IMG/VR virus record: IMGVR_UViG_3300044912_000713
Reading direction: 5' to 3' (one strand)
Length of the DNA stretch: 20,000 bases
Origin: an uncultured virus (IMG/VR IMGVR_UViG_3300044912_000713)
Taxonomy: Duplodnaviria; Heunggongvirae; Uroviricota; Caudoviricetes
This document shows positions 1 through 13,995 of the stretch, piece after piece. Each line of letters starts with the position of its first letter. Positions within the stretch are counted from its first letter, which is position 1. The notes beneath the pieces are model-generated. The model was not told the origin of the DNA, made no database searches, and saw only the letters and a program-made list of their open reading frames with translations. The position numbers and the translations under genes are program-made.

Positions 1-631
1 GAAATTTAATCTTGTAGTCAGACAGCTCGTGGCACAGCTCGAAGGCATATCCCTGGTTCTTCCTCTTCGTGAAGAGCCCGATTATCACCACGTGTTTGTA
101 GTCGGGTTCGAGCCCTAGTCTCTTTCTCGCGGCCATCTTGTCCTGCTGCTTGGCATCGACCGGGTACTCTATTATTTCGAACGGCACATTGAGGTGCTTG
201 TACTTCAAGGCGTTGTAAGGGCTGACGAAAACGAACCTGTCCGGCATGTATCTCTTGCTCCCGGGATTGAAGCTGCTGTCGTGGGTGGTTTCCACAATCG
301 TGTATTCGCGCTCGGGACGGTACACCCACTGCGCCATGTCCTCCGACATGAACATCTCGGGAAACTCCTCGACGCTCACGCAGTCCGGTTTGAAGTCCTC
401 GAATATCCGCTTCAGCTCATCCGTCTTGTTCTGTCCGAGGGTCTTGAACCGGTCCGGTTCGAGAGCCCCGACTATTATGTTTCTCTGCACCACGTAGTTC
501 CATGCCAGCATCGCGTGCTCCACGACCATTACGTCAAACCTGTCCTTCAGCAGCAGCACCTTGTTCGCGGTTACCTGCGGAGCGCCTCCCGTGCTCAGGT
601 GCGGCGTAAATATCAAAAGTCTCTTTTTCAT
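1..631 (-). CDS. Glycosyltransferase family 4 (GT-B), 3' end runs off the window
   Basis: Not in the ORF track. My translation from ATG 631 begins MKKRLLIFTPHLSTGGAPQVTANK and near the edge reads GLFTKRKNQGYAFELCHEL, typical GT4 N-terminal and G-x-x-x-x-x-K-N motifs. ATGA overlap with the GT9 stop. Confidence 0.8.
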   Translation of the reverse strand, partial: MKKRLLIFTPHLSTGGAPQVTANKVLLLKDRFDVMVVEHAMLAWNYVVQRNIIVGALEPDRFKTLGQNKTDELKRIFEDFKPDCVSVEEFPEMFMSEDMAQWVYRPEREYTIVETTHDSSFNPGSKRYMPDRFVFVSPYNALKYKHLNVPFEIIEYPVDAKQQDKMAARKRLGLEPDYKHVVIIGLFTKRKNQGYAFELCHELSDYKIKF

Positions 632-1572
632 AGGTATTCTCTTATTGAGGCATAAACAGAATCAACGGGCGGATGGCACTCCATGGTTGGATAGTTCTCC
701 AGGCACCTTATGAGGGGCGCCACGCCCTGTATGTTTCCCCACTCTTTAATCCCGTGCTTGGCGTCCGACCCGCACTCCAGCGCGCAAGAACCCCTCACGT
801 AGCGGTACTTCCACGTCTGCCCTCCCTTCCTGTAGGGGGCGCGGAACTCCTGCTTAATGTTCGACCCGAGGTGGATTATCGGCGCCTCCGTCGTCCCGGC
901 CAGGTGCAGCAGTCCGCTGTCCATCGTCACGAAGCAGGCGCTCTTCTGTATTATCCACCAGCAGTCCGAGACGCTCGTCTTGTTCATCAGGTTTCTTCCA
1001 AGCGGGATGTCAAAGTTGAAGACGGGCTTCTGTACGTTGAAGAACCCAGTCTCGCTGGAGTCCTTTCCTATCGAGACCACATGGATGCCCTGCTCGTTGA
1101 GTTTCGCCGTCAGCTCCATCCATCGGGAAGCCTCCCACGTCCTTGTCGGCCACGATGACACCGGGTGAATCACCACGTAGGGCTTGTCGGGTATCATGGA
1201 TTCATCGATGGGAAATACGGGCCTGTAATGGCACTCCATCTCGTCTTTCGCGAGCATGAATCCCAGCTGTATTGCGTGAAACTGCCTTATGTCAATCATG
1301 TTGTGCTTGTACTCGATTCCCCGCTCGTTCTTCTTTCCCACGTTGTAGAACGTGTCGTGCACTATGTAGTTCGAAGAGAAGTGGTCCATGTCTACGGACG
1401 ACCTCTTGTAGCTCGCGTCCACGTACGGGTTCTCTTTGAAAATGTCCGGACGCTGGGATATGACTGTCACCCTTTTTCCGTAGTAGTCGTGCAGCTTCTT
1501 AATCGTGGGAGTGGCGCAAATCAGGTCGCCGAGCCCGTTGCACTGCTCGAGGTTTATGGCTATTGGTTTCAT
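628..1572 (-). CDS. Glycosyltransferase family 9 (heptosyltransferase-like)
   Basis: GLGDLICATP, VVIHP...TRTW and FVTMDSGLLHLAG are GT9 motifs. Start moved to ATG 1572, which gives an ATGA overlap with the sulfotransferase stop. Confidence 0.88.
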   Translation of the reverse strand: MKPIAINLEQCNGLGDLICATPTIKKLHDYYGKRVTVISQRPDIFKENPYVDASYKRSSVDMDHFSSNYIVHDTFYNVGKKNERGIEYKHNMIDIRQFHAIQLGFMLAKDEMECHYRPVFPIDESMIPDKPYVVIHPVSSWPTRTWEASRWMELTAKLNEQGIHVVSIGKDSSETGFFNVQKPVFNFDIPLGRNLMNKTSVSDCWWIIQKSACFVTMDSGLLHLAGTTEAPIIHLGSNIKQEFRAPYRKGGQTWKYRYVRGSCALECGSDAKHGIKEWGNIQGVAPLIRCLENYPTMECHPPVDSVYASIREYL

Positions 1573-2396
1573 ATAACGTATTTGAAGTGGTCGAAATACC
1601 ACTTGAACCTGTTTACTATCCACTCGCAGACGTACTGTCCGAGCACGTCCTTTGCATCGGAGGGTCTCATCTCCAGCGTGTTTCTAATAATGTGGTCGCC
1701 GAATCCCATGTGCGGGTTGTCGTCCTCGTGCGTCAGCTGCGGGATGTGGTCGAAGTTGTGCTGGAAGAACGGTATTTCAAGGTAGTTGTATATGCGTGAA
1801 ATCTCCCTGTCGGGATTGAGGCAGAAGTCCTCGTACTTAACGAAAAGTATCTTATGCTCGTCCTTCATCTGAATGACGCTCTCTATGCGCTCCAGCATGA
1901 TGCCGATGGGAACGCCGTTTGCCCACGAGTCTATGCGCTTGTTCACTATGGTGTTCTTCATCTCGGCCCAGTCAATCATGAGGTCCTTGTGCATGTTCTT
2001 CCTGAACTTCTTCTCCATGCTGCAGAAAACGTCCCTGAGGTCTCGAACCATGCAGACTATCTTCGGTTGGTATGGCAGGAACTCCTCAATCCACCTTACG
2101 TACGGCGTCCATGCCCTTCCCTTGTCGATGTAATACTTCTTGTTGGTTATGGAGTTGGCATATCCGTGAATGGCGGAGTTGCAGAATCCGGCGAACGCCT
2201 TTCGCATGGCATCCTGGTCAAGCGCGTGCTTGAACTCTTCGATTGTGGTGAAGTTGTGCCTTGCCCCGTACAGCAAGTCCATCAATCCGCTGGTCGGAGT
2301 AGCGTAGATGTCCGGATTCTGGGCCAATATGTTCTGCAGCAGGGTGCTCCCGCTCCTCGGCATGCTGGACTGGAAGAAGATTCTTTCTACTGCCAT
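1569..2396 (-). CDS. PAPS-dependent sulfotransferase
   Basis: 5'-PSB motif SMPRSGSTLL, 3'-PB motif MVRDLRDVFCS, and VKYEDF. ATG 2396 follows an A-rich leader. Confidence 0.9.
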   Translation of the reverse strand: MAVERIFFQSSMPRSGSTLLQNILAQNPDIYATPTSGLMDLLYGARHNFTTIEEFKHALDQDAMRKAFAGFCNSAIHGYANSITNKKYYIDKGRAWTPYVRWIEEFLPYQPKIVCMVRDLRDVFCSMEKKFRKNMHKDLMIDWAEMKNTIVNKRIDSWANGVPIGIMLERIESVIQMKDEHKILFVKYEDFCLNPDREISRIYNYLEIPFFQHNFDHIPQLTHEDDNPHMGFGDHIIRNTLEMRPSDAKDVLGQYVCEWIVNRFKWYFDHFKYVI

Positions 2397-2400
2397 TTTT

Positions 2401-2436
2401 TTTCGTGAATTTATGGAAATTCTTATATTCACGGAA
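2401..2436. promoter_or_regulatory. Divergent promoter region with an imperfect inverted repeat and two Bacteroidota -7-like boxes
   Basis: 53-bp AT-rich gap between divergent genes. Arms 2401-2413 and 2424-2436 match 11/13 as inverted repeats. They contain TAAATTCA (-) and TATATTCA (+), near the TAnnTTTG consensus. Confidence 0.5.
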
Positions 2437-2449
2437 GTAAATAATTGAC

Positions 2450-2839
2450 ATGAATATATCAATAGGACCGGGCGAGGCGTACGACCGCCTCACGATACTC
2501 GAGATTAAGCTGAGGCGAATCTCCGACCCCGAAAAGCTCAAGAACGTCGACCGGGAATTGACGTCCCTCTCCGCCTCCATACTCAACTATTGCGCCCGGA
2601 CCAACCAGGCGCCACCGCCCGAGCTCGTAGACTCTCTAAGATTCGTCAACGAAAGGCTCTGGAAGGTGGAGGACGAACTCAGGCAGCTGGAGAGCGAAAA
2701 GGCCTTCGGGGACCATTTCGTGAAGCTGGCGAGGCAGGTGTACTACCTCAACGACGAGAGGGCTGAGTTGAAGAAGGAGATAAACTTGAAAATGAATTCG
2801 GAATTCGTAGAAGAGAAGTCATATAAACCGTACAAATGA
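2450..2839 (+). CDS. DUF6165-family protein
   Basis: ISIGPGEAYDRLTILEIK...VNERLWKVEDELR...LARQVYYLNDERAELKKEIN...EEKSY matches the DUF6165 pattern as I recall it, a family often found near glycosyltransferases. Confidence 0.75.
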   Translation: MNISIGPGEAYDRLTILEIKLRRISDPEKLKNVDRELTSLSASILNYCARTNQAPPPELVDSLRFVNERLWKVEDELRQLESEKAFGDHFVKLARQVYYLNDERAELKKEINLKMNSEFVEEKSYKPYK

Positions 2840-3351
2840 TAAAACCGGGAGAGATAACGGTCCTGTTCGGACAGCCGCACAGCGGCAAGAGCACCCTTGC
2901 GTGGGAGCTGAAGAAGGCTTTGATTGAATCGGAGGGAATATCCTATCCCATAGTAGACGGGGACGAGATTAGGGCCATCTTCAAAAACGGCGACTACAGC
3001 CGGGAAGGTAGGATTAGGAACCTGCAGAGAATCAGCGACATAGCCGTCTACCTAGCCCAGCAGCACGAAAGGGTTATTGTGGCTGCGGTTTACCCTTACA
3101 AAGAGGCAAGGGAATACCTCGACTCGCAGATTAAAGACGTGAAATGGATTCACCTGAGCTACGATGGGGTAAGGGGAAGGGAGACCTTCCACGTCAAAGA
3201 CTTCGACCACGTGTTCTATGGTGGAAATACATATTCAATAAATACAAGCAAAAATGGAACAGACGAGTGCTGCCAGAAAATACGCCTTATTCATCGGCCG
3301 CTACCAGACGCTGCACGAAGGGCACAAGTACCTATTCAGAAAGAAGATTGA
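2836..3351 (+). CDS. cysC: Adenylyl-sulfate (APS) kinase
   Basis: P-loop GQPHSGKST plus the CysC signature DGDEIR...YSREGRIRNLQRI. ATGA-coupled to the upstream gene. Confidence 0.85.
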   Translation: MIKPGEITVLFGQPHSGKSTLAWELKKALIESEGISYPIVDGDEIRAIFKNGDYSREGRIRNLQRISDIAVYLAQQHERVIVAAVYPYKEAREYLDSQIKDVKWIHLSYDGVRGRETFHVKDFDHVFYGGNTYSINTSKNGTDECCQKIRLIHRPLPDAARRAQVPIQKED

Positions 3352-3631
3352 CGAGGGAGTGCCGGTCATGGTTGCAATCCGGGACGTGCCGACGGACGAG
3401 AAAAACCCGTATAACCCGACGCAAGTCGTGGACATGTTCTTCCACGACCCCGAAACCTCCAAATGGATATCCGAGTCGATGATGATTGTAACAGTCATCC
3501 CGGACATAGAGGGGGTGTACTACGGCAGGGACGTCGGATACAAGGTGGAGCAGCTCGCGGTTCCGCCGGAAGTGGCGTCAATCTCCGCAACTGCGATAAG
3601 GGAAGAGAAGAGAAAAAGGGGAGAGATATGA
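3254..3631 (+). CDS. HxGH nucleotidyltransferase (cytidylyltransferase-like superfamily)
   Basis: FIGRYQTLHEGH motif and C-terminal ISATAIR motif. Confidence 0.8.
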   Translation: MEQTSAARKYALFIGRYQTLHEGHKYLFRKKIDEGVPVMVAIRDVPTDEKNPYNPTQVVDMFFHDPETSKWISESMMIVTVIPDIEGVYYGRDVGYKVEQLAVPPEVASISATAIREEKRKRGEI

Positions 3632-3852
3632 CAATCGACAAGAAGAGGCACGTCGCAAAGACCATAAGCTACCGGCTCGTAAGCACGGGAATAGGCTTCG
3701 TCATGATGTATTTCGCCACCGGCAGCCTTAAGATAGGCGCCGCTTTCGGCGTTGCGGAGCTGATATACAAGCCCATTCAATACTACCTGCACGAGAGGGT
3801 CTGGTACCGATACATAAAGTACGGACTCAAGAGAGAGAAGGGTCAACGGTAG
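3628..3852 (+). CDS. DUF2061 small membrane protein
   Basis: RHVAKTISYR...YYLHERVW signature. Start set at ATG 3628 (ATGA overlap) rather than 3463. Confidence 0.82.
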   Translation: MTIDKKRHVAKTISYRLVSTGIGFVMMYFATGSLKIGAAFGVAELIYKPIQYYLHERVWYRYIKYGLKREKGQR

Positions 3853-4660
3853 ATATCCTCATGTGCGCGAGGTAGCGGGGAAGTCCCTCTTCAATCGTGT
3901 ATTTCGGGGTCCAGCCGGGCATGAACAGCTCCGGATTGGCCTTCGTGAACTGCTGGTAGTTTTCGGGAATGGAATCGGCTTCGGCGTACTCGTATCTCAA
4001 ACCGAGAATGTCCATCACCTCCTCGAAGCTCCTATCCTGGCCAGAACCCACATCGTAGTACTTTCCACGAATACCTTCGTAGTTTTCAAGCGCGTGCAAG
4101 TTTGCGTCGACGACGTCCTGGATGTAGACGAAGTCCCTGCGGGGTCCTGTCGGAAAAAGCCGGAACGGCTCGCCCCACTTGCACTTCATGTATGCCTGGC
4201 ACGCCACGGAGGCCATCTTTCCCTTGTGGTACTCGTTCTCCCCGTAGACGTTGAAGTATCTGAGCGCGACCTGCCTTCTGCCTATCGCGTACGTCTCCCC
4301 GATGTATTTTGATGCCGCATACAGCGTCTCCGGAAGTCCGGATGACCCGGTTACGGAAGCCGACGAGCTGAAGATGAAGGGTTTGTTATTCGCCTGGCAC
4401 CAGTCGGAAAGAAGCATGGTTGAAAGGACGTTCCTTGTCATAATCATGGGCACGTCGGTACACCTGGTGTCCGCAATTGCGCCGACGTGGAAGATTGCAT
4501 CCGGGTTCAGCTTTTCAACGTACTGTGTTAGCATCTCGTGCCACTTTCCCCGCTCGAAAATCCACTGCTCAATCCCGAGGCAAATCCATCCTTTGGCTTC
4601 TATCGCCCGCTGCAGGGCACCGCCCACGAAGCCCTTGTTTCCCGTTACGCAAATCCTCAT
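3827..4660 (-). CDS. hldD: ADP-L-glycero-D-manno-heptose 6-epimerase-like NAD-dependent epimerase
   Basis: VTGNKGFVG Rossmann motif, YAASK, and the HldD-typical LRYFNVYGENEYHKGKMASV and RRDFVYIQDV. ATG 4660 preferred; TTG 4684 is possible. Confidence 0.85.
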   Translation of the reverse strand: MRICVTGNKGFVGGALQRAIEAKGWICLGIEQWIFERGKWHEMLTQYVEKLNPDAIFHVGAIADTRCTDVPMIMTRNVLSTMLLSDWCQANNKPFIFSSSASVTGSSGLPETLYAASKYIGETYAIGRRQVALRYFNVYGENEYHKGKMASVACQAYMKCKWGEPFRLFPTGPRRDFVYIQDVVDANLHALENYEGIRGKYYDVGSGQDRSFEEVMDILGLRYEYAEADSIPENYQQFTKANPELFMPGWTPKYTIEEGLPRYLAHMRISTVDPSLS

Positions 4661-4671
4661 GTCTTTTAAGG

Positions 4672-4679
4672 CAAATTTA
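4672..4679 (-). promoter_or_regulatory. Bacteroidota-type -7 promoter box TAAATTTG
   Basis: Exact TAnnTTTG match in the short gap, 11 nt upstream of the hldD ATG. Confidence 0.4.
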
Positions 4680-4680
4680 G

Positions 4681-5451
4681 TCAAACCACGCTAACCCCGC
4701 GCTGTGATACTACGGTTCCAGCCAAGTCGTTTGCGTAGTCTATGGCCGCGTAGATTTTTCCAGACCTCATGTAGCTGAAGGCAAGTGCCGCCGTGAAGGT
4801 GTCCCCTGCCCCGCTCACGTCTATGGTGTTAATCGGCTTGCGCGAAGGGTACTTGGTTCCGCCGTGCATTGCCCCGTCCGAGCCAAGCGTCACGACGAAC
4901 TTGGTGGAAAACTTCCTCTTGTGGGTCTGCAGCACGTTCTCTGCGTACTCTTTGCTGTTGAGCTTTATGAAGTCAACGTAATCGAAGATGGAGAGCTCCA
5001 TTTTTTTCTTCGTATCCATGAAGACGGGACATTTTTCCTTCTTCAACCTCGATATCCTCTTCAAATCCTCTATCTGGATGAACCCCTTGTCGTAATCGGA
5101 CACGATTATGCAGTCGGCCTTAGAAATCTTGTCCTTGGCCTCCGGGGTGAATGAAATCCGCTCGAATTCCTCCTCTTCGTCCACGCGAAGGAAGTAGTGA
5201 TTGGTCTTTGAGTCGACGTACCTTGTCTTGACCGAACCCGATGCGGAGAGGATGGCGTCCACGGAATGTGCGTTTCCGTTCTGGAAGGCGATTGAGGCGA
5301 GGTTGTTGAAAACATTCGCAGCCATCCCTTTGTTCTCCCTCCTATAGGAAGGTGTGAAAACGGGTACGGGCGCTTCCGGGGAAAGCCTGTTGGAGTCCCC
5401 GTATACGAACACGTCCGTGCACTGCTCGCCTATGACTAGAAAATTGGCCAT
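4681..5451 (-). CDS. rfaE1: Heptose-7-phosphate kinase (HldA/RfaE domain I, PfkB family)
   Basis: RLSPEAPVPV, GMAANV, KTRY, VSDYDKG and DVSGAGDTF are RfaE kinase motifs. Confidence 0.88.
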   Translation of the reverse strand: MANFLVIGEQCTDVFVYGDSNRLSPEAPVPVFTPSYRRENKGMAANVFNNLASIAFQNGNAHSVDAILSASGSVKTRYVDSKTNHYFLRVDEEEEFERISFTPEAKDKISKADCIIVSDYDKGFIQIEDLKRISRLKKEKCPVFMDTKKKMELSIFDYVDFIKLNSKEYAENVLQTHKRKFSTKFVVTLGSDGAMHGGTKYPSRKPINTIDVSGAGDTFTAALAFSYMRSGKIYAAIDYANDLAGTVVSQRGVSVV

Positions 5452-5816
5452 CAGTTTCCCTTTTTTATCCTGTAGGAGTCGTGGTCGAAGTGCTCCGTTG
5501 ACACTTCGATTATCTCCCCGTCGGTCAAGGCGTGAAGCTGGTGGGGCATACCGGTCGGTATTTCGACCACGTCGCCCGGAACAAGGCTCCTCGTATGCTC
5601 GACTCCCCGCTCCGTGTCAATCCAGTTGAAGATGAACTCCCCCACCCTGACAAACCAGGTCTCCTGCTTCACCATGTGGTAGTGCATCGAGAATCTGCAT
5701 CCGGCGCGAAACTCGAGAATCTTTCCGCAGTACTTATGACAGTTGTGAATGACCAGCTCGCGCCCCCATCCTTTGGGTATCTCGCAGCATTTAGTCAATT
5801 TTGGCTCTTTTCCCAT
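5451..5816 (-). CDS. Cupin, sugar-phosphate isomerase-like
   Basis: KGWGRE...YCGKIL...SMHYHMVKQETW...GMPHQL...EVST cupin metal-binding pattern. Confidence 0.8.
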   Translation of the reverse strand: MGKEPKLTKCCEIPKGWGRELVIHNCHKYCGKILEFRAGCRFSMHYHMVKQETWFVRVGEFIFNWIDTERGVEHTRSLVPGDVVEIPTGMPHQLHALTDGEIIEVSTEHFDHDSYRIKKGN

Positions 5817-6207
5817 TCTTTATCTTTTTTATGGTTTCCGAAGTCGACAATCCCCCTATGCGCTGAAAGAAAGTCACGTTGGCGCAGTGCTCCGCGCCTA
5901 TTATCTTCTTGCCCATGTAGTCGCTGCCGATAACCATCTGCCATGGGCTGAGCTGCCTGATGTAGTCGGACAGCTGGTGGTCCGTATCGAATACGTACAC
6001 TTTTTCAACATACACCAGAGATTCAAGAAGAGACTTCCTGAACTGCTGGTCGTTGACCGGCCTGTCAGAACCCTTGGCCTGGCGAATCCTCGCGTCCGAG
6101 TCGATTCCGACGAATACCATGTCTCCGAGCGTGGAGGCGAACTCAAGAAGCTTGAGGTGGCCCATGTGCAGGACGTCAAAGCATCCGTTTACCCATACTT
6201 TTCTCAT
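5791..6207 (-). CDS. rfaE2: Heptose-1-phosphate adenylyltransferase (HldC/RfaE domain II)
   Basis: VWVNGCFDVLHMGH, VGIDSD..I...KG.DRPVN, GSDY and STS motifs. Clustered with the kinase and epimerase. Confidence 0.85.
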   Translation of the reverse strand: MRKVWVNGCFDVLHMGHLKLLEFASTLGDMVFVGIDSDARIRQAKGSDRPVNDQQFRKSLLESLVYVEKVYVFDTDHQLSDYIRQLSPWQMVIGSDYMGKKIIGAEHCANVTFFQRIGGLSTSETIKKIKNGKRAKID

Positions 6208-6334
6208 AGGAGTATTGTAAAATTTTCACTTAATTGTCCTAGCAACGAATATAAATAATTCCACAAGATATGCAATCTTTTGAAAAATTGTGCACGTAAT
6301 CAAAAAAAACCAGTATTTTCATGTGCAATATATT
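6208..6334. promoter_or_regulatory. AT-rich divergent promoter region
   Basis: 127-bp AT-rich gap between divergent runs, with TATATTCG (-, 6246-6253) and TATTTTCA (+, 6314-6321). Confidence 0.5.
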
Positions 6335-6613
6335 ATGACAGAGATGAGCATCGATACGAGAACAGTCGAGCGCTTGGACGCCATGGAGCGCACGCTCGAA
6401 AGCCTGGTTCACAAGTTGAACAAGCTATATGTGGCGGTTGCAGGGGACGAGACCCTCGACCAGGAAGGATACCTGCAGCGGCTGAAGAAGCTGGAGAAGC
6501 AGGTTCACGAGCATCAAGTCCTAAAATACAAACTCATGGGCGCTTTCGTCGGAGGTGGTGCGATTTGGACCATACTCTGGGAGGCGTTCAAAAAATTAGT
6601 ACTGAAAAGCTAA
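6335..6613 (+). CDS. Small coiled-coil protein with C-terminal TM helix (holin-like or virion membrane protein)
   Basis: Heptad-like segments, then LMGAFVGGGAIWTILW and a basic tail. ATG 6335 or 6344. TAATG coupling to the next gene. Confidence 0.65.
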   Translation: MTEMSIDTRTVERLDAMERTLESLVHKLNKLYVAVAGDETLDQEGYLQRLKKLEKQVHEHQVLKYKLMGAFVGGGAIWTILWEAFKKLVLKS

Positions 6614-7041
6614 TGCCAGTGTTACCATCAGCAACTTCTACGGCTGCAACCGCGGCCACCAGCGCCTCCAAGGCGAGCAGCATCGCTGGAAAGGCAGACG
6701 TCATAGGGGCGGCCGGACAAGTGGGGGCTCTCGCAATCAGCACCATCGGACAGATTAGCGACGCCAACAAGCGCCGCAAGTTCGAGGAAAACTTCTCGAG
6801 GCTGACTTTGGAGCAGCAGAAGGGGCTGGAGATGCTGCTGATAGAATCGAAGTCGAACACGGAGAGGCTGTCAGTGCTAGCGCAGTATCTGACGCAGCTC
6901 AACGCGCAGCGGATATCGAACCTGGCCTCGTACTACGGGGAGAAAGAGAAGAGCGGTAGAAACAAAACATTGATAATTCTCGGTGGAGTCGTGGTGGCCG
7001 GCATACTGGTGACGTATCTGCTCCTGAGAAACAAGAACTGA
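6613..7041 (+). CDS. Tail-anchored membrane protein (paralog A)
   Basis: ATG overlaps the upstream TAA. Ala-rich N-terminus, helical core, TM segment LIILGGVVVAGILVTYLLL, then RNKN. Confidence 0.75.
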   Translation: MPVLPSATSTAATAATSASKASSIAGKADVIGAAGQVGALAISTIGQISDANKRRKFEENFSRLTLEQQKGLEMLLIESKSNTERLSVLAQYLTQLNAQRISNLASYYGEKEKSGRNKTLIILGGVVVAGILVTYLLLRNKN

Positions 7042-7042
7042 C

Positions 7043-7390
7043 ATGCCCATACCAATAATCATAGCGGCGATTGGGGCTGCGGCGAGCGTCGCATCGGCCG
7101 CTTCTGGCGTTGACAAGGCCTCCAAGGAGAGGTATTTCAGCCAGCAGTTGGCCTTCTTGAACCAAGATGAGCAGAACCAGCTAGCAAAAAAATTGGAGGG
7201 GGCGAAGAGCAACGACGAGAGGGTCAGGATACTCACATCCGCGGTCTCATCCGTGGAGGAGGCGAGGCTGAAAGGTCTCACCACTGTCCAGCTCGAAAGG
7301 GAAAAGACCAAGAAGACCCTGCTCGTGGTGGGAATCGCCGGAGCGGTCGTTCTTCTTTTGACTGTTTTAATAGTATCAAAAAGAAATTGA
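7043..7390 (+). CDS. Tail-anchored membrane protein (paralog B)
   Basis: Hydrophobic Ala-rich N-terminus, KSNxER core shared with the previous gene, C-terminal TM, then KRN. Confidence 0.75.
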   Translation: MPIPIIIAAIGAAASVASAASGVDKASKERYFSQQLAFLNQDEQNQLAKKLEGAKSNDERVRILTSAVSSVEEARLKGLTTVQLEREKTKKTLLVVGIAGAVVLLLTVLIVSKRN

Positions 7391-7391
7391 A

Positions 7392-7775
7392 ATGCCAGAA
7401 GTAAACGGTCTAGACACGCTGCAAGACAAGGCGCTGACCCCCGACAAGAAAGACCAGCTGGTAAACCAGATACAGTCGGAGATTGACTCGCTGAATCGCA
7501 TACTTAGGGAGCAGGGTGCTCCCGCCGCGGTTTTGGAGGCAGCCAAGAGGAATAAGAACTCGCTGCAGGGACTTGTCAACAAGATTCTCGCCAAGAAGGG
7601 GGTGATAACGCCGACAGAGACGAACGACGCCCTTGAGGCGATGGCGAAGGCCAAGCGGGAGCGTCTCGAGAGCGACTTCTCGACGACTGTTCGCAGATTT
7701 GCAATTGTGGCTGGACTTCTGATTGGCGGCTATCTGGCCTGGAGGTACGTGAAAAAATTAAACCAGAACGGATGA
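7392..7775 (+). CDS. Tail-anchored helical membrane protein
   Basis: Helical core, TM segment FAIVAGLLIGGYLAW, basic tail. 1-nt gap to the upstream gene. Confidence 0.75.
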   Translation: MPEVNGLDTLQDKALTPDKKDQLVNQIQSEIDSLNRILREQGAPAAVLEAAKRNKNSLQGLVNKILAKKGVITPTETNDALEAMAKAKRERLESDFSTTVRRFAIVAGLLIGGYLAWRYVKKLNQNG

Positions 7776-8095
7776 ATAAGAACTTAAAGACGGCGATATT
7801 GGTCTTCGGGGGCGGAATCGTCCTCTACTGGGCTTTCACCAAAATCAGGCCTTTCGTAAAGACAAAGAAATTGAAGAAGGAAATCGAATCGGGTTCCGCC
7901 GGAAGCGCGGAGAAGGTTAAAAAGGCGGGCGCGGCCCTGAGGGCTTACAACACCGCCAAGAGGGAAGGGCAGCCGAAGGAGTTTCTCGACGAACTGAACC
8001 TCGAGCTCATGAAGGAGTACGGGGTTAAAATCATGACGGACAAGTCTACCGGAAAGACATTCGCGGCCGATTCCGATGGCAACAAAATAGTGTAA
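7772..8095 (+). CDS. N-terminally anchored membrane protein
   Basis: TM segment TAILVFGGGIVLYWAF followed by a Lys-rich soluble part. ATGA overlap. Confidence 0.72.
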   Translation: MNKNLKTAILVFGGGIVLYWAFTKIRPFVKTKKLKKEIESGSAGSAEKVKKAGAALRAYNTAKREGQPKEFLDELNLELMKEYGVKIMTDKSTGKTFAADSDGNKIV

Positions 8096-8096
8096 G

Positions 8097-8618
8097 ATGG
8101 CAGTACCTCCAGTGATAACGACAATACCACCTGCAATTTCGGTGACCGCACCGGCGGGAAGCGTGCTGGGTACGGGGATAACGTACCAGCAGTTTTTGCA
8201 GAGCCTCGGCACGTACAACTACGGTGTCGAATACTTCTACATGCAGGCCTCTACCTATCCGGAGATTGGACAGCCGGTATATTACAACAGGTTCCTGGCG
8301 AACGGGGACTCCGTGACGGCTTTCTTGCCTTTTCATGTCGACCCTTACCAGTCCCAACCGGCCATCTTCTACGAGACCGAGAGGGACCAGATAATCTTCA
8401 CCGGACTGACCGCCCTGCAGTTCAAGCTCCAGCCGACCAGCACCGTGTACTTCAAGTTCTTCGCCACGATTCTCTACATAGGCAACGATTCCAACCATAG
8501 CTGGGACGCCTACATGGGAACCGACGCGTTCAAGCAATTGGAGCAGGAGGAGGGAATCACGTTCTTCGACGACTACTGCAATTACCTAATAGACGAAAGC
8601 AACGACAATGTCAATTAA
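8097..8618 (+). CDS. Hypothetical beta-rich protein, possibly virion structural
   Basis: Aromatic-rich alternating beta-strand pattern and acidic tail. Coupled between the membrane genes and the Thr-rich gene. Confidence 0.6.
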   Translation: MAVPPVITTIPPAISVTAPAGSVLGTGITYQQFLQSLGTYNYGVEYFYMQASTYPEIGQPVYYNRFLANGDSVTAFLPFHVDPYQSQPAIFYETERDQIIFTGLTALQFKLQPTSTVYFKFFATILYIGNDSNHSWDAYMGTDAFKQLEQEEGITFFDDYCNYLIDESNDNVN

Positions 8619-10077
8619 ACGGGAGCTCATACAGTTCACGCTGGTCAATTCGACCGACTGCGAGTACACCATTCCGCTCATGCAGCTGAATGTATATTCT
8701 ATCAACGCAACGACCAAGTACAGCTGGAACATAACCTCCCAGAACCTTTCCTGCGGGACGGGAAGTATCGTGATAAATTCAATCACATACAACATAACAT
8801 TTGCCCCGAACCTGGCCGGACTCCTGGCCGCGTTGAACGCGCTCGGATTCGGATTCTTCTGCAGCGAGACGATTGGACCCAACACATTCATATACACCGT
8901 CGACGACACGAACATATACGGAAACCTTGACCTGTGCGCGACCGGAACGACCACGACGACAACGTCAACAACATCAACGACATCAACGACTTCCTCAACG
9001 ACTTCGACGACTAGCTCGACCACGTCGACCACCTCATCTACGACATCTACGACTTCAACGACCTCTTCAACGACATCTACGACTTCTACTACAAGTTCGA
9101 CCACGTCGACCACTTCATCGACAACCACCACGACATCGACTACCACCACGACGACAACCCTTTCAGGCGTAAACCTTAACCTCCTCGAGCAGGCGGTAAC
9201 AGGCGGTAGCAATATAAACGCAGAATACAGCACAGACCTCGGTGTCACATGGACACCGTTCCTAAACAATCCGGTAACTTCGGGCAATCCAAATTACAAT
9301 TCGTATAATTTTCTAAACCTGCTACCCGGAACCACATTGTACGTCGCGTTGCTTGACACATCTAACAACGACATACAATACGGTTCAGGATTTTTCAGCT
9401 CCGACTATGTCTCACTGTGCGGTAAGTCAACGCCATTCATCACGACTATATTAACCGGAGTAAACAATATCTACTTGAACGTCGCGGTGTCCGGTGGAAA
9501 TCTGGTTAATTGCCCGGTTACCACTACCACGACTACAACGACCACATCAACTACGACAACCACAACAACTTTGCCGGCCTGCGTCGAATCGGTATCTTTC
9601 GACGTTACCAGCCCTGGTGACGTATCGGTGACAAACTGCTGTGGAATCGCTTCACTCAACACGTACGCGATAGGAAGCTACACCCTAACTGCGGACTGTT
9701 ATCAGCTTAACGGCGTTGTTGCGATAGACGCGGTAATAACCAACGTCGTATACTCTCTTCCTGCGTGCAACTGTCCTCCGACGACCACAACCACGTCTAC
9801 GACCACCACGACTACGACTGTGGGTCAGCAGATAAACATATTCTTGGACACGACTTCGATTAACGTGTGCTCGGGTAATACCTTCAACAACGTATACATA
9901 ACCCAGAGCTCGACTTTCGGACCTGGAACGATTGTCTACTATGACGCCGGTTGCACGCTACCAATGAACAACACGAACACCTACTTCTACGTTGTTAAGA
10001 ATCCTAGCGCGTCGCAGACCGTGTACGACTGGGATGGAACGACGGGGACGATAGGAAACTCGGTCGGAAGCTGCTAG
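8608..10077 (+). CDS. Mucin-like multidomain protein with three Thr/Ser linkers (putative virion spike/fiber)
   Basis: 489 aa with four beta-rich domains separated by pure T/S tracts of 71, 17 and 13 aa. 15 Cys, only 4 Lys and 1 Arg, no His. Confidence 0.75.
   Translation: MSIKRELIQFTLVNSTDCEYTIPLMQLNVYSINATTKYSWNITSQNLSCGTGSIVINSITYNITFAPNLAGLLAALNALGFGFFCSETIGPNTFIYTVDDTNIYGNLDLCATGTTTTTTSTTSTTSTTSSTTSTTSSTTSTTSSTTSTTSTTSSTTSTTSTTSSTTSTTSSTTTTTSTTTTTTTLSGVNLNLLEQAVTGGSNINAEYSTDLGVTWTPFLNNPVTSGNPNYNSYNFLNLLPGTTLYVALLDTSNNDIQYGSGFFSSDYVSLCGKSTPFITTILTGVNNIYLNVAVSGGNLVNCPVTTTTTTTTTSTTTTTTTLPACVESVSFDVTSPGDVSVTNCCGIASLNTYAIGSYTLTADCYQLNGVVAIDAVITNVVYSLPACNCPPTTTTTSTTTTTTTVGQQINIFLDTTSINVCSGNTFNNVYITQSSTFGPGTIVYYDAGCTLPMNNTNTYFYVVKNPSASQTVYDWDGTTGTIGNSVGSC
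8947..9159 (+). repeat. Thr/Ser coding tract 1 (71 codons, TTS/TTSS periodicity)
   Basis: Only ACN/TCN/AGY codons, with varied third positions. Confidence 0.95.
9520..9570 (+). repeat. Thr/Ser coding tract 2 (T9-S-T7)
   Basis: 17 consecutive Thr/Ser codons. Confidence 0.95.
9781..9819 (+). repeat. Thr/Ser coding tract 3 (T5-S-T7)
   Basis: 13 consecutive Thr/Ser codons. Confidence 0.95.
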
Positions 10078-10099
10078 GGTATATGAAAACACAAAAAAA

Positions 10100-10109
10100 A
10101 ACCATAAAA
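10100..10109 (+). promoter_or_regulatory. AACCATAAAA leader motif (one of six exact copies)
   Basis: 1 nt before ATG 10111. Other copies are on the minus strand at 5827-5836, 14928-14937, 16426-16435, 18186-18195 and 19940-19949, each 0-11 nt upstream of a start codon. Confidence 0.6.
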
Positions 10110-10110
10110 G

Positions 10111-11088
10111 ATGAGAACGGAAGAAAAGCGGCTGACGCTGATTTGCGTGCAGCCTTCAATAATCTACTACGCATGGCAGGTGGAGGTCATGCTCACGAAC
10201 TTCGAGCGGCTCAACCTTCACGATAAATACAACATCCACTGCCTGTTCGCCTACAACAAGAGCGAACCGGACTGGAGGGAGAAGGTGGCGCTCGTCACCA
10301 AGGTGATGTTCCGATTCCAGGGAGTGGCCGAATTTTACTTCTACCCGGACACGAGGCAGTATCCGGTAAGCTACATCTCATCGATTAGACCCAACGCCCT
10401 CAAGCAGCACTTCGCCAGATTCCCCGAGCTCGGGAAGCAGGCGGTTTTCTACCACGACTGCGACATTATCTTCTCCAAGTACCCCGACTTCCTCGATGTC
10501 ATGGTCGAAAGCGGGGAATGGTTCGTTTCGGACACGATATCCTACATCGGATACGAATACATCGTATCGAAGGGACACGACGTGCTCGACCTCATGTGCC
10601 GCATAGTGGGATGCCACCCGTTCCTGATTAGGGACAGGCAAAGCCAGTCTGGAGGCGCGCAGTACCTGATGAGGGGCGTCGACTTCCAGTTTTTCGACAA
10701 GATGGAGAGGGATTGCGAGCGCATGTACCGAGAGGTGACCGACCTAAACAACAAGAAGAAGCAGCTCGACCCCAAGCACCACGAGCTACAAATCTGGTGC
10801 ACCGACATGTGGTGCCTCCTCTGGGGGGCGTGGATGAGGGGATACGACACGCACGTCTCGCCGGCCCTTGAGTTCTGCTGGGCCACGGACCCGCTGGAGA
10901 AGTTCGAGAAGAACTACATTTTCCACAACGCCGGCGTTACGAAGGCCGGAGAGGGATTCTTCTACAAGGGACTCTACACAAACTCACTGCCATACCAGGA
11001 TGAGAGGTATCCGATAAACCCGCAGTCCGCGAGCTCCAAATACCACGAGCTTCTTATGGAGGTCGGAAAGACAAGCTGCCTAATATAA
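10111..11088 (+). CDS. GT-A glycosyltransferase resembling plant peptide O-glycosyltransferases (SERGT1/GT96, HPAT/GT95)
   Basis: Ordered motifs YYAWQVEVM, YISSIRP, VFYHDCDIIF (DxD), GGAQY and WCTDMW parallel YxxWQ, YxxxN(K/R)P, DxD, GG and WxxEMY of the plant enzymes. Confidence 0.6.
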   Translation: MRTEEKRLTLICVQPSIIYYAWQVEVMLTNFERLNLHDKYNIHCLFAYNKSEPDWREKVALVTKVMFRFQGVAEFYFYPDTRQYPVSYISSIRPNALKQHFARFPELGKQAVFYHDCDIIFSKYPDFLDVMVESGEWFVSDTISYIGYEYIVSKGHDVLDLMCRIVGCHPFLIRDRQSQSGGAQYLMRGVDFQFFDKMERDCERMYREVTDLNNKKKQLDPKHHELQIWCTDMWCLLWGAWMRGYDTHVSPALEFCWATDPLEKFEKNYIFHNAGVTKAGEGFFYKGLYTNSLPYQDERYPINPQSASSKYHELLMEVGKTSCLI

Positions 11089-11093
11089 AACCC

Positions 11094-11324
11094 ATGATAG
11101 ACAAGATTAAAGAGATAGTCCAGTCGTACGCGACTATGGTAAACCCCACGGACGAGCAGAAGCGCGCCGCCGAGATAAGGCTCCTGAGCTGCATGAAGTG
11201 CGAGGAGTGGAAGCAGAACGCTGTCGGAATCAGCTACTGCGGAAAGTGCGGATGCGCGACAAAGGGAAAGATATTCTCCCCGAAGGGGGTGAACGCATGC
11301 CCGCTGGGCAAGTGGATAATATAA
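11094..11324 (+). CDS. Small Cys-rich metal-binding protein (DUF6171-like)
   Basis: RLLSCMKC...CGKCGC...K...CPLGKW pattern, common in phage ORFs. Confidence 0.7.
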   Translation: MIDKIKEIVQSYATMVNPTDEQKRAAEIRLLSCMKCEEWKQNAVGISYCGKCGCATKGKIFSPKGVNACPLGKWII

Positions 11325-11334
11325 AATTCTAAAC

Positions 11335-11850
11335 ATGCCATACAGTTACGGAGAGTTCAAGACCCAGGTCAGGGACCACATAGTGGACAACTTCCCCAGG
11401 AGCACTAAAATACTGGACGTCGGCGCCGGAAGCGGCACCTACGGGAACCTTCTGAAGCCCCACTACGACGTGGTGGACGCCATCGAGGTTTTCCCAGAGT
11501 ACGTGAAAATGTTCGACCTGCGCTCGAGGTACAACTACGTGCACATTGGAAACATCATGCAGTTCGGGTTCGAAGGATACGACTACCTCGTGCTGGGGGA
11601 CGTGCTCGAGCACCTGACCGTCTCTGACGCGACCTCGCTGATTGAGAGGATTGACGCGCTGGGAAAGAAGGCGCTGGTGGCCGTGCCGTACATGTTCGAG
11701 CAGGGGATTGAATTCGGAAACATCTACGAGACCCACCACCAGCCGGACCTCACCGTGGCGAGGATGTACCAGCGATACCACACCCTTAGGCTCATATACG
11801 GAGACCTCGGCTACGGTTACTACATCAACTACATACCGCCGATAAAATGA
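11335..11850 (+). CDS. Class I SAM-dependent methyltransferase
   Basis: ILDVGAGSG, DAIE and YDYLVLGDVLEHL motifs. Confidence 0.88.
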   Translation: MPYSYGEFKTQVRDHIVDNFPRSTKILDVGAGSGTYGNLLKPHYDVVDAIEVFPEYVKMFDLRSRYNYVHIGNIMQFGFEGYDYLVLGDVLEHLTVSDATSLIERIDALGKKALVAVPYMFEQGIEFGNIYETHHQPDLTVARMYQRYHTLRLIYGDLGYGYYINYIPPIK

Positions 11851-12548
11851 ACCTGAAAGTCGTAGTAAACAACAGGAACAGGCTCACGACGACCAGAAAC
11901 ATGGTCGAGCACCTGCTGCGGCTGAACCCGAGGCAGGAAATCGTCATTCTCGACAACGCCTCGACGTATCCGCCCCTCATGGAGTGGTACCAATCCGTAA
12001 ACGAGAATCCGGAGAGGTGGCCCACCCTGCAAATCAGGCTCCTGCCGAACCTCGGACACCTGGCGTTCTGGAACTCAAACATGCAGGGCGAGGTCGGCGA
12101 GTACTTCGTGTACAGCGACTCAGACATAGAGCTCGACCCGGAGATGCCCCATAATTGGGCGTTGCAGATGATTAACTTGATTGAGAAGTACGAAATCAAT
12201 AAGGTCGGGCTTTCCATACGGATTGACGACATACCGGACCACTATCCCCATAAATCCCAGGTTTTGAGGGACCAGGCCGGATGCTGGAAGGAAGAGGCGG
12301 AGCCGAACGTGTTCTGGGGCGATACGGACACCACATTCTGCCTAATCAGGAACGTGGGGGGAAATCCCTACAGAAGCCTCAGGGTGGCCAGAAAAGGCTT
12401 CAAATCGCGCCACACACCCTTCTACCTAGACTTCGAAGACCTGTCTCCGGAGGAGCTTTACGTCCTGGACAACCACGACGGGCGGTTCCACACCCAGTAC
12501 ACGAGCGCCCACGTGCGGGAAAAGAAAAAGACGAATCCCCATGAATAG
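11847..12548 (+). CDS. GT2-like glycosyltransferase
   Basis: VVVNNRNR, IVILDNAST, NLGH and YSDSDI (DxD) motifs. Confidence 0.78.
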   Translation: MNLKVVVNNRNRLTTTRNMVEHLLRLNPRQEIVILDNASTYPPLMEWYQSVNENPERWPTLQIRLLPNLGHLAFWNSNMQGEVGEYFVYSDSDIELDPEMPHNWALQMINLIEKYEINKVGLSIRIDDIPDHYPHKSQVLRDQAGCWKEEAEPNVFWGDTDTTFCLIRNVGGNPYRSLRVARKGFKSRHTPFYLDFEDLSPEELYVLDNHDGRFHTQYTSAHVREKKKTNPHE

Positions 12549-13413
12549 ACTTAAAAACAATGACAATCCAAGGGTCACGGCGATACTGTGCACCTACGGT
12601 CGCTTCTCCTGCGTGGAGAGGGCGGTTAACTGCTTTCTCGCGCAAAGCCATGGAAACAAAGAACTCGTCATTTACAATACGGACGATGAAAACCCCTATC
12701 TCGACCGAGGCGGTCGTTTGGAGGCCCACGGCATACTAATAGTCAACAACGGGAGGGACAGGGTAACGGGACTTCCGTACACGAACGTCGGAGCCGTACG
12801 AAGGGACGCGCTGGTGTTCGCCGGCGGGGAATACGTGGTAACGTGGGACGACGACGACATATACCTGCCCCACCTGATGGAGCAGGCGTTGGACAGGATT
12901 TGGCACACGGGACTTCCGTCATTCAAACCGGCCATGTCGTTCTTCTACAGCGGGGACTACCTGAGGCTGGTCCAGAACACCATGGAGGCATCCGTCGTAG
13001 CGAAAAGGTCCAAGGTAGAGGAGTATGGATACAACCTCGAGACGGGAAGGGAGGGTCTGGCGTGGTACACGAGGATGAGGGACAATCGCGAGCTCGACGA
13101 GAACGACGCCCACTGCGTACCCAGCTACTGCTTCAACTGGAACGATGGTGACACCATGAAGGCTCCCCACAAGCAGTCCGGCGACATAGACAATCCCGAG
13201 AATTTCGAAATACACAAGACCCGCTCCACCGACCGGGTGGACGGCAGAGACATCGAAATATACGGGGTAGAAAAAATGGCCCGGGTTTACGAGCCATACT
13301 TCAGGTTCCTATTCGACCATTCGAGCGAATTCCCGGACGACCTGTTCGACAAATACGTCAGCAGGAGCTGGGACTACGTGGAATCGCTGGTGGGTTTTTC
13401 CAGACGCTCATAG
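12541..13413 (+). CDS. Glycosyltransferase family 2
   Basis: VTAILCTYGR...AVNCFLAQ...KELVIYN...VGAVR...YVVTWDDDDIYLP. Confidence 0.85.
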   Translation: MNRLKNNDNPRVTAILCTYGRFSCVERAVNCFLAQSHGNKELVIYNTDDENPYLDRGGRLEAHGILIVNNGRDRVTGLPYTNVGAVRRDALVFAGGEYVVTWDDDDIYLPHLMEQALDRIWHTGLPSFKPAMSFFYSGDYLRLVQNTMEASVVAKRSKVEEYGYNLETGREGLAWYTRMRDNRELDENDAHCVPSYCFNWNDGDTMKAPHKQSGDIDNPENFEIHKTRSTDRVDGRDIEIYGVEKMARVYEPYFRFLFDHSSEFPDDLFDKYVSRSWDYVESLVGFSRRS

Positions 13414-13995
13414 GGTGTCCGAGGTTTTCCCCCTTCTACCCAGAAACGCCTGCGAGTCCTCGCAGTGTATCAGCTCGAACCCGTTTTCCAAGAGGTAGGG
13501 AATCGAGAGCTTCCCCTTTCCATCGAATTGGTCGTTGAAGACGTCGTCTATGAGCACGAAGCACGTGTCGGCGAGCATGTCCCACGCGGCCTTCAGCTCG
13601 TTTACGGAGTGCTCCTGGCATCGGCGGACGTTCTCCGCGTCTCCAACATAGTCGTAGCTGTCGAGGAATAGCAGGTGAATCGGCTCTTTGAACGCCGAAA
13701 GGTAGGCTACGGAGTCTTGTTTGGTGTATTCAACGTAGTCTGACGGCGGCACGACGATTTTCGCCTTGTTCAGGTGGTTCTCGTCAATGTCGACGACGTA
13801 CACCCTCGAATCCGTCTCACGGGCGTGGTACTCCCAGTTTAGGGTGCTCCACCCGTCCCCGAACCGGCACTCGTCCGTGTTGTTCCTTATGCACCCGGTC
13901 TCTACTATGTTTATGGGATGGTCGAAAGTTGCGGCGAGCGTCAACAGCACCCGCGTGAAGGACGTGTTTCGTCCTGTCTCTGGCTTTGTGTTCAT
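13408..13995 (-). CDS. Class I SAM-dependent methyltransferase (Methyltransf_24-like)
   Basis: IVETG...GWST, VVDID, DSVAYL, LLFLDS and VLIDD motifs. Confidence 0.8.
   Translation of the reverse strand: MNTKPETGRNTSFTRVLLTLAATFDHPINIVETGCIRNNTDECRFGDGWSTLNWEYHARETDSRVYVVDIDENHLNKAKIVVPPSDYVEYTKQDSVAYLSAFKEPIHLLFLDSYDYVGDAENVRRCQEHSVNELKAAWDMLADTCFVLIDDVFNDQFDGKGKLSIPYLLENGFELIHCEDSQAFLGRRGKTSDTL

Follow-up and report, generated by a model that had tools for sequence, protein, structure and literature searches.

Introduction

Among the closest described systems is the virion glycosylation of mycobacteriophages Che8, Corndog and Myrna (Freeman et al. 2023, cited in PMC11256854, PMC12619734, PMC12363180 and PMC10877033), in which, as the relevant passages of these articles describe it, glycosyltransferases encoded by the phage act close to the C-termini of capsid and tail-tube proteins, possibly several of them in series. 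Giant viruses such as chlorovirus PBCV-1 also glycosylate their particle proteins by a virus-encoded, host-independent route. Here we analyze a stretch of 20,000 nucleotides (nt) from the uncultured virus IMGVR_UViG_3300044912_000713 (the window, meaning the whole stretch), in which a gene for a poly-Thr/Ser protein (8608..10077, + strand) is followed by a gene for a putative glycosyltransferase (10111..11088, + strand). Comparison of the sequences makes it likely that this enzyme O-glycosylates Thr/Ser (T/S) tracts on virion proteins. More tentatively, enzyme and tracts might form a portable, self-sufficient O-glycosylation device of unrelated bacterial viruses, used here by a large tailless virus with a true viral mucin, namely a bottle-brush spike strand-clipped to a split capsid-protein paralog and served by virus-encoded extenders; this fuller picture we consider possible rather than probable.

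Results

Thr/Ser tracts accompany the enzyme gene in unrelated viruses

A first-pass annotation, made from the letters of the window alone, had named as its own first test the genomic co-occurrence of 10111 homologs with poly-Thr genes; when this test was run, the linkage was found. Among 46 viral enzyme loci, some of them near-copies, 35 carry a same-strand open reading frame (ORF) bearing a T/S run of at least 8 residues, and in 29 of the 46 a T/S ORF ends within 300 nt upstream of the enzyme start. A 7-codon Thr pattern is present in 36 of 45 whole enzyme records, and in all 7 of the records that are at least 90% complete; the nine misses include one virus with T/S tracts of a different pattern (G059) and one with looser Thr repeats (G076).

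The enzyme family occurs in 77 GenBank phage records, and 12 cultured phages were inspected. The enzyme gene lies inside head or tail operons, at differing positions in unrelated phages, and poly-Thr runs were found on structural-module or neighboring proteins in 11 of the 12, the carriers being capsid, tail-tube, Ig-like or neighboring proteins; the twelfth, SAC12B, has PTTV repeats instead of poly-Thr. The runs are placed as follows:

phiFL1A: tail tube and a capsid-region protein
Lactococcus phage bIL285 (L049): tail tube, not the adjacent capsid
Lactococcus phage 1706 (L050): capsid and ORF13
phiCTP1: gp11 and tail tube
Enterococcus phage VPE25 (L052): tail tube
Lacticaseibacillus phage iLp84: capsid, gp8 and tail tube
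Semele: gp74/gp75
4995_1: capsid
PMBT8, R3.3 and MA9V-3: structural-module proteins

In phage 1706, the capsid and ORF13 tags both finish in a Thr run plus HHD. Near-identical short tag endings on different proteins of one phage (1706, bIL285) point to a copying of the tag between genes. In VPE25 (L052, 5773-5900), the stop of the capsid gene is closely followed, in the -1 frame, by a poly-Thr extension without annotation, so that a programmed frameshift may tag a fraction of the capsid subunits.

Co-inheritance of tails and enzyme

As controls, we gathered relatives of three Firmicutes-phage capsid or tail proteins by their tail-less cores. The resulting 181 loci comprise 119 with both tail and enzyme, 53 with neither, none discordant, and 9 that were set aside as truncated or too short. 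Enzyme-negative capsids include ones 94-99% identical to positives. For 50 of the 52 distinct negatives the whole record was searched (24 of them at least 90% complete), and all 50 lack the enzyme by a model that detected it in 8 records of the poly-Thr set described below. In trees built without the tails, with identical rows merged and six truncated, short or partial loci left out, the state changes 4 times in the tail-tube tree (20 rows), 3 of these changes being forced by strong branches, and 3 times in the capsid tree (56 rows), where 2 are forced. The tree of the iLp84 set is a quick version, and the 4995_1 capsid set was left out of the trees.

Since near-copies are frequent among the 181 control loci, the independent events number about 8. 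Moreover, an adjacent tail could travel with the enzyme as a single DNA cassette, and for this reason tails on other genes were counted, in loci of at least 12 kilobases (kb). Such non-adjacent tails, on structural genes 2.3-3 kb from the enzyme, are found in 12/12, 29/31 and 34/65 enzyme-positive loci of the three sets (75/108 in total), against 0/9, 2/27 and 0/3 enzyme-negative loci (2/39 in total). The prophages L210 and L213 have neither the enzyme nor a capsid tail, yet carry a poly-Thr tail on the tail tube; these tails are putative orphan tags left after loss or recombination.

A soluble GT-A-fold enzyme without a named family

The 10111 protein has no match in Pfam or NCBIfam and belongs to phrog_4417 (E 2.5e-58), a family without a name, whose members are labelled 'prophage pi2 protein 34' in some GenBank records. 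Among 2427 candidates we count 2243 relatives at 90% identity, or 917 at 50% clustering. The AlphaFold2 model is confident (predicted local distance difference test, pLDDT, 95.5; predicted template modeling score, pTM, 0.92) and has a GT-A fold. Its nearest match is glycogenin (Z 15.1, root-mean-square deviation 3.5, 230 residues aligned), followed by LgtC (Z 14.8), WbbM (14.4), the Skp1 galactosyltransferase (14.3) and UGGT (14.2), with sequence identities of only 7-14% to these top matches. In all, 113 chains reach Z of at least 8, the list being headed by GT-A enzymes, and the GT-A alignment covers residues 3-325 of 325. A profile search of solved-structure sequences gave no match.

Across 38 diverse members of the family, D118, G182, W229, M233 and H272 are invariant, D116 is nearly so (at least 90%), and position 232 is mostly D or E. 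The motif residues (D116-x-D118, G181-G182, the acidic residue 232 and H272) were assigned from sequence position and secondary structure in a model without ligand. GT-A enzymes carry DxD, G-loop and C-terminal His (C-His) motifs, as outlined in a section of PMC7185993, and the conservation of D116/D118, G182 and H272 fits these. The first-pass identification of the protein as a DxD GT-A enzyme is thus borne out by a confident model, by fold matches and by conserved motifs. With no hydrophobic segment (maximum 19-residue hydropathy 1.24), the modeled protein is a soluble GT-A-fold enzyme and, going by its sequence, a new family within that fold. Many of the 76 longer homologs scanned have a second glycosyltransferase domain, the fusion partners being GT2, GT6, GT7-type, GT25, GT29 and DXD sugar-binding domains. 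On four large-phage fragments (L029-L031, L036) the enzyme homologs lie distant from T-rich genes, and they are possibly trans-acting or repurposed members.

An enzyme of this kind might also act on the tracts in a second step, after a host enzyme, or move a sugar-phosphate or polyol-phosphate; most of the top fold matches use glycan acceptors (LgtC, UGGT, XXYLT1, LARGE1), and the donor is not readable from the sequence. We regard this as highly improbable, since the same enzyme and the same naked tag occur in Bacillota phages, Bacteroidota phages and lake viruses, the annotation of the 12 cultured-phage stretches inspected names no second glycosyltransferase, and the enzyme is the member of the window's cluster most tightly tied to the tag. 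Direct transfer of the first sugar to the tracts is the reading that we pursue below.

Layout of the locus

The genes and tracts of the locus are the following:

8097..8618, + strand: 173 amino acids (aa), paralog of the putative capsid protein P0392 of related viruses, predicted partner and capsid anchor of the 8608 protein; outside the region covered by the first-pass annotation
8608..10077, + strand: 489-aa poly-Thr/Ser protein with an N-terminal 112-aa anchor domain, three T/S tracts and variable Cys-containing domains; putative glycosylated spike
8947..9159, + strand: T/S tract 1, 71 residues, putative acceptor
9520..9570, + strand: T/S tract 2, 17 residues
9781..9819, + strand: T/S tract 3, 13 residues
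10111..11088, + strand: 325-aa soluble GT-A-fold glycosyltransferase, phrog_4417; putative initiating peptide O-glycosyltransferase
11094..11324, + strand: 76-aa six-Cys protein, phrog_13558
11335..11850, + strand: 171-aa class I S-adenosylmethionine (SAM) methyltransferase-like protein, accessory
11847..12548, + strand: 233-aa GT2-like protein a, accessory
12541..13413, + strand: 290-aa GT2 protein b, SpsA/WcaA-like N-terminus; best candidate extender

The 3' end of the 8097 gene overlaps the 8608 start by 11 nt, the enzyme gene starts after a gap of 33 nt, and the five genes from 10111 to 13413 are separated by successive gaps of 5 and 10 nt and then overlap by 4 and 8 nt. The arrangement initially described, 101 pure T/S residues followed after 33 nt by five tightly spaced genes on the same strand, therefore stands. 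The content of the window is viral (RecT, a Cas4-like nuclease, PHROG matches, relatives in IMG/VR). Lake-water runs (n=24) contain 0.90-1.00 of the sampled words of the window, 18 of the 24 being possibly from the source sample; in run X24, which is not flagged as such, a single contig covers 8000-10390, from the tracts into the enzyme gene, with zero differences. Because lake-water runs reproduce the region, one not flagged as a possible source without any difference, an assembly artefact was rejected and the assembly is taken as sound. No RNA run is among the runs listed as containing window sequence.

The poly-Thr/Ser protein and its predicted anchor

The 8608 protein contains 121 Thr, 61 Ser and 15 Cys in 489 aa, and its pure T/S runs (residues 114-184, 305-321 and 392-404, of 71, 17 and 13 residues) total 101; 10,000 shuffles of the protein yielded no run longer than 15. 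All four Thr codons and five of the six Ser codons occur in the long tract, which argues against a simple slippage repeat, and an origin as a simple microsatellite was rejected on this mixed codon use. Neither a signal nor a membrane segment was detected, and there is no match in Pfam, PHROGs or NCBIfam. The first 112 residues are kept in 211 relatives and the distal domains vary. Modeled alone, this N-terminal domain reaches a pLDDT of 66.7, with residues 1-36 below 50; likenesses to FliD, flagellin and a sheath insertion were not accepted (Z at most 4.8, BFVD E at least 0.016).

The 8097 gene accompanies 8608 in relatives. As a stand-in for the window's virus we used one of these, G001 (84 kb, estimated 90% complete, a linear record), and the 8097 product aligns with its protein P0392 (hhalign probability 96, E 4.4e-9, covering P0392 108-202). 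P0392 (232 aa) is 96-97% identical among G001-G003, viruses that the neighboring window proteins match at about 40-70%. Since it is the most conserved protein examined and adjoins the Walker-A ATPase P0393, we infer P0392 to be the major capsid protein of the lineage. P0393 has a Walker A motif, but no match in Pfam, Pox_A32 or the PDB; the Pox_A32 search of five records found nothing, and the 8097 profile has no match among solved-structure sequences.

A modeled complex of 8097 with residues 1-112 of 8608 scored 0.64, against 0.00 for the best control. This level is reached by 116 of 157 solved pairs and 2 of 215 mismatched ones, a mark that applies only roughly to custom alignments. The runs agree in at least 43% of contacts, with a partner pLDDT of at least 77, and in the best contacts residues 7-16 of 8608 run in reverse register along residues 112-122 of 8097. 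The model suggests that 8608 donates a strand that completes a capsid-like domain of 8097, and this predicted complex with a probable capsid-protein paralog lends support to the initial description of the tract protein as a virion spike.

If the glycosylation is real, the 8608 product might nonetheless be a non-structural or host-surface protein and not a virion spike, which we consider unlikely. It would be in keeping with this that the protein lacks matches in the family databases searched, that its N-terminal domain has no clear fold match (best Z 4.8), and that no virion of the lineage is known in this analysis. Against it stand the missing signal and membrane segments, the predicted complex with 8097, whose paralog P0392 is the most conserved protein examined in the lineage (G001-G003), and the annotation of the tagged proteins of cultured phages as capsid and tail proteins. 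We therefore retain the spike as the preferred reading for 8608.

The lineage itself would fairly probably have a tailless, membrane-containing particle, to judge from the genes of G001. Tailed phages (Caudoviricetes) are recognized by terminase, portal and HK97 capsid genes, and tailless jelly-roll viruses by a jelly-roll capsid protein and an FtsK/A32-type ATPase. No Terminase_6N and no head, packaging or portal hallmark was found among the ORFs scanned in this linear record, which may lack such genes. Its content includes many small membrane proteins, lytic enzymes, polyvalent proteins and a 2813-aa collagen fiber with an S74 chaperone (L241-L245), as well as further small T/S-tract proteins (L242, 5885-6280 and 6327-6815). 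G001 possibly stands for an undescribed group of large tailless viruses; our literature search found no paper on this lineage. At 6290-8095, the window holds five small conserved genes without family match, two of them encoding a strong membrane segment near the C-terminus (hydropathy 2.7 and 3.1); the products of the five may resemble the membrane proteins of a lipid-containing virion.

Accessory genes

The genes downstream of the enzyme are patchily distributed. The 11094 protein matches phrog_13558 and has six Cys in 76 aa, a pattern from which it may bind zinc; homologs occur in 14 of 49 enzyme loci, and 19 of 271 enzyme homologs examined contain it as a fused part. The 11335 product resembles a class I methyltransferase (best Pfam E 2.6e-4, under the cut-off) and is present in 7 of the 49 loci; the 11847 product is GT2-like (E 1.6e-4, narrowly under the cut-off) and present in 8. 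The 12541 product is a GT2 protein by a match over the cut-off (E 1.3e-6), occurs in 18 of the 49 loci, in 15 of them near full length and in 8 of these 15 outside the window lineage, and is fused to the enzyme in 3 of the 271 homologs. When 12541 was searched for without the enzyme, 6 full-length loci were found, all of the window lineage and all with the enzyme, along with 3 partial matches without it. In L380, of the window lineage, the tract protein, the enzyme and GT2 12541 follow one another with nothing between.

These counts bear on two earlier statements. The gene labels hold in full for GT2 12541, and less firmly for GT2 11847 and the methyltransferase, whose matches lie below the cut-offs. 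A fixed pathway of "extending enzymes" is contradicted by the rarity of the latter two and by L380, which lacks both; these are optional, accessory genes, and 12541 is the likely extender. Given the patchy accessory genes and the cultured phages without a second annotated glycosyltransferase, we take the core of the system to be tag plus enzyme.

At 13408-13995 (- strand), convergent on the cluster, lies a second methyltransferase (Methyltransf_24, E 6.9e-9), a homolog of which directly follows the enzyme in L026; P0138 is a fusion of the enzyme with a Methyltransf_24 domain. At 628-6207 the window contains a sugar block with GT9, a sulfotransferase, an APS kinase, nucleotidyltransferases, an epimerase, a PfkB kinase and a cupin, resembling a heptose pathway. 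This block could supply donor or sulfate for the same glycans, or serve host-surface modification; its epimerase is absent from the loci of close relatives.

Discussion

The enzyme is nearly always accompanied by tracts, and most viral Thr tracts are found without the enzyme. This asymmetry, together with several other observations, weighs against our proposal. We found at least 129 stretches of ten Thr codons, and the enzyme was present in 8 of the 80 loci examined; when 47 stretches were chosen as likely coding and 42 whole records searched, it was present in 8 of the 42, and in 1 of the 4 records at least 90% complete. Conversely, seven enzyme-bearing fragments (L006, L007, L010, L029-L031 and L036; 4-34% complete) carry no tract, and in L029 and L036 the genes around the enzyme look metabolic, with no T-rich gene close by. 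In the controls, 33 of 108 enzyme-positive loci have no second tail and 2 enzyme-negative loci retain a tail-tube tail. A GT-A fold alone names no acceptor, and our literature search found no glycan, mass shift or activity for this pairing. Neither Pfam nor PHROGs nor the PDB offers a match for P0392, and its Atlas matches are at chance level, so that its capsid role is putative. Finally, the likeness of the 8608 N-terminus to P0392 56-100 lies in the right place but by itself lacks significance (hhalign E 0.11; 36 of 500 shuffled sequences do as well).

In a rival explanation, the enzyme would modify a host surface polysaccharide or the phage DNA, and the Thr tracts would be unmodified, flexible linkers hitch-hiking with it on one cassette. 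The enzyme is missing from most poly-Thr virus records, the lipopolysaccharide and polysaccharide enzymes LgtC and WbbM are among its top structural matches, the window carries GT9, sulfotransferase and heptose-type genes, and the enzyme carrier VPE25 has glycosylated DNA, a modification that the pertinent part of PMC4999554 ascribes to a separate, T4-like beta-glucosyltransferase. We think this explanation quite unlikely: the presence of the enzyme tracks tails on structural genes 2.3-3 kb away, C-terminal tails on capsid and tube proteins link nothing, and the head or tail operons of unrelated phages harbor the enzyme gene at various positions. O-glycosylation of the tracts remains the reading that we favor.

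In the mechanism that we infer, the soluble 10111 enzyme would work in the host cytoplasm during infection, taking a nucleotide sugar as donor and, through its DxD and C-terminal His, a divalent metal, and would put the first sugar on Thr and Ser hydroxyls of the 8608 tracts. GT2 12541 would probably lengthen the glycan, which in this lineage may also be varied or capped by GT2 11847 and the methyltransferase. To dock into the particle, the 8608 protein would donate a strand of its N-terminus (residues 7-16) to the 8097 paralog, and the densely glycosylated tracts would form stiff, hydrated, protease-resistant stalks that hold the variable distal domains off the shell. Across phages, enzyme and poly-Thr tag would make up a portable two-part module on capsid, tail-tube, Ig-like or fiber proteins, with protease protection, a stiff spacer or masking as candidate purposes of the glycan.

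The comparative evidence for the enzyme/tag module is strong, and the activity is putative. If our proposal is true, it would give a function to a large phage family without a name (2243 proteins at 90% identity, 917 at 50%), carry virion glycosylation beyond mycobacteriophages, into viruses of dairy, the gut and fresh water, cultured phages included, and bear on the origin of plant-type peptide O-glycosyltransferases. A single soluble cytoplasmic enzyme with a short Thr tag would also be a useful tool for glyco-engineering. The window further suggests, as a hypothesis on structure, a way in which such a spike might be anchored, the predicted binding of the N-terminus of the tract protein to the 8097 paralog being new here, in a virus that is possibly tailless.

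Comparison with known systems

Since virion glycosylation is characterized in mycobacteriophages, the kind of system is known. The first-pass annotation named no characterized prokaryotic-virus system with this substrate-enzyme pairing, and we have not found the poly-Thr/enzyme pairing in print. Our literature search, outside of which lay subscription journals and supplements, turned up no paper in which a poly-Thr tag is paired with a dedicated glycosyltransferase, and the relevant passages of PMC6821194 mention no phage Thr tags. As in mycobacteriophages, a phage glycosyltransferase, here of putative activity, is genetically tied to virion proteins. Unlike there, the acceptor would be a dedicated, multi-site Thr/Ser tract whose gain and loss go along with those of the enzyme, in lake viruses as well as in phages of Bacillota and Bacteroidota. 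The 75-77 GenBank phage records that match the enzyme (tblastn) include no mycobacteriophage, in a search that involved no direct comparison with the Che8 gp110, Corndog gp38 or Myrna enzymes. The capsid glycosylation of giant viruses differs in its eukaryotic hosts and in its enzyme families (PDB 2p6w, Z 10.9 and 8% identity to 10111).

In fold, the enzyme is closest to GT8-like GT-A enzymes (glycogenin, LgtC; also UGGT, WbbM and the Skp1 galactosyltransferase), with which it shares the whole-domain fold, the DxD and the C-His. In function it would be like the plant and algal peptide O-glycosyltransferases HPAT (GT95, PF23452) and SERGT1 (GT96), in that the first sugar would go to hydroxyls of a low-complexity peptide. 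These enzymes have a membrane anchor of the secretory pathway; the 10111 protein has none, no member of its family reaches the Pfam cut-off, and the putative acceptors are Thr/Ser runs, not Ser-hydroxyproline motifs. The kinship with SERGT1/HPAT suggested at first shrinks to a remote lead. One of 32 divergent homologs aligns collinearly to PF23452 positions 9-115 (11.2 bits, E 0.23, cut-off 23.9), none of 105 close members matches at E of 1 or below, and a search of five records gave 0 matches, with a positive control that was likewise silent. Among the language-model Atlas neighbors of 10111 at 0.96 is a cluster of which 10% are PF23452 proteins.

Animal mucin-type O-glycosylation is initiated by ppGalNAc-T (GT27), which has a C-terminal ricin-type lectin domain. 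As in animal mucins, tracts rich in Thr and Ser would take on a bottle-brush form when densely O-glycosylated. Unlike ppGalNAc-T, the phage protein would be a single-domain cytoplasmic enzyme with neither lectin domain nor membrane anchor; it has no Pfam lectin match, and GT27 is not among the best 50 structural matches listed, which leaves GT27 possible. The label "mucin-type" used at first was overstated, as it means N-acetylgalactosamine (GalNAc) on Ser/Thr, and uridine diphosphate (UDP)-GalNAc as the donor is unproven. Without assigning the 10111 protein to GT95, GT96 or GT27, we consider it likely, from these comparisons, that it works like a peptide O-glycosyltransferase.

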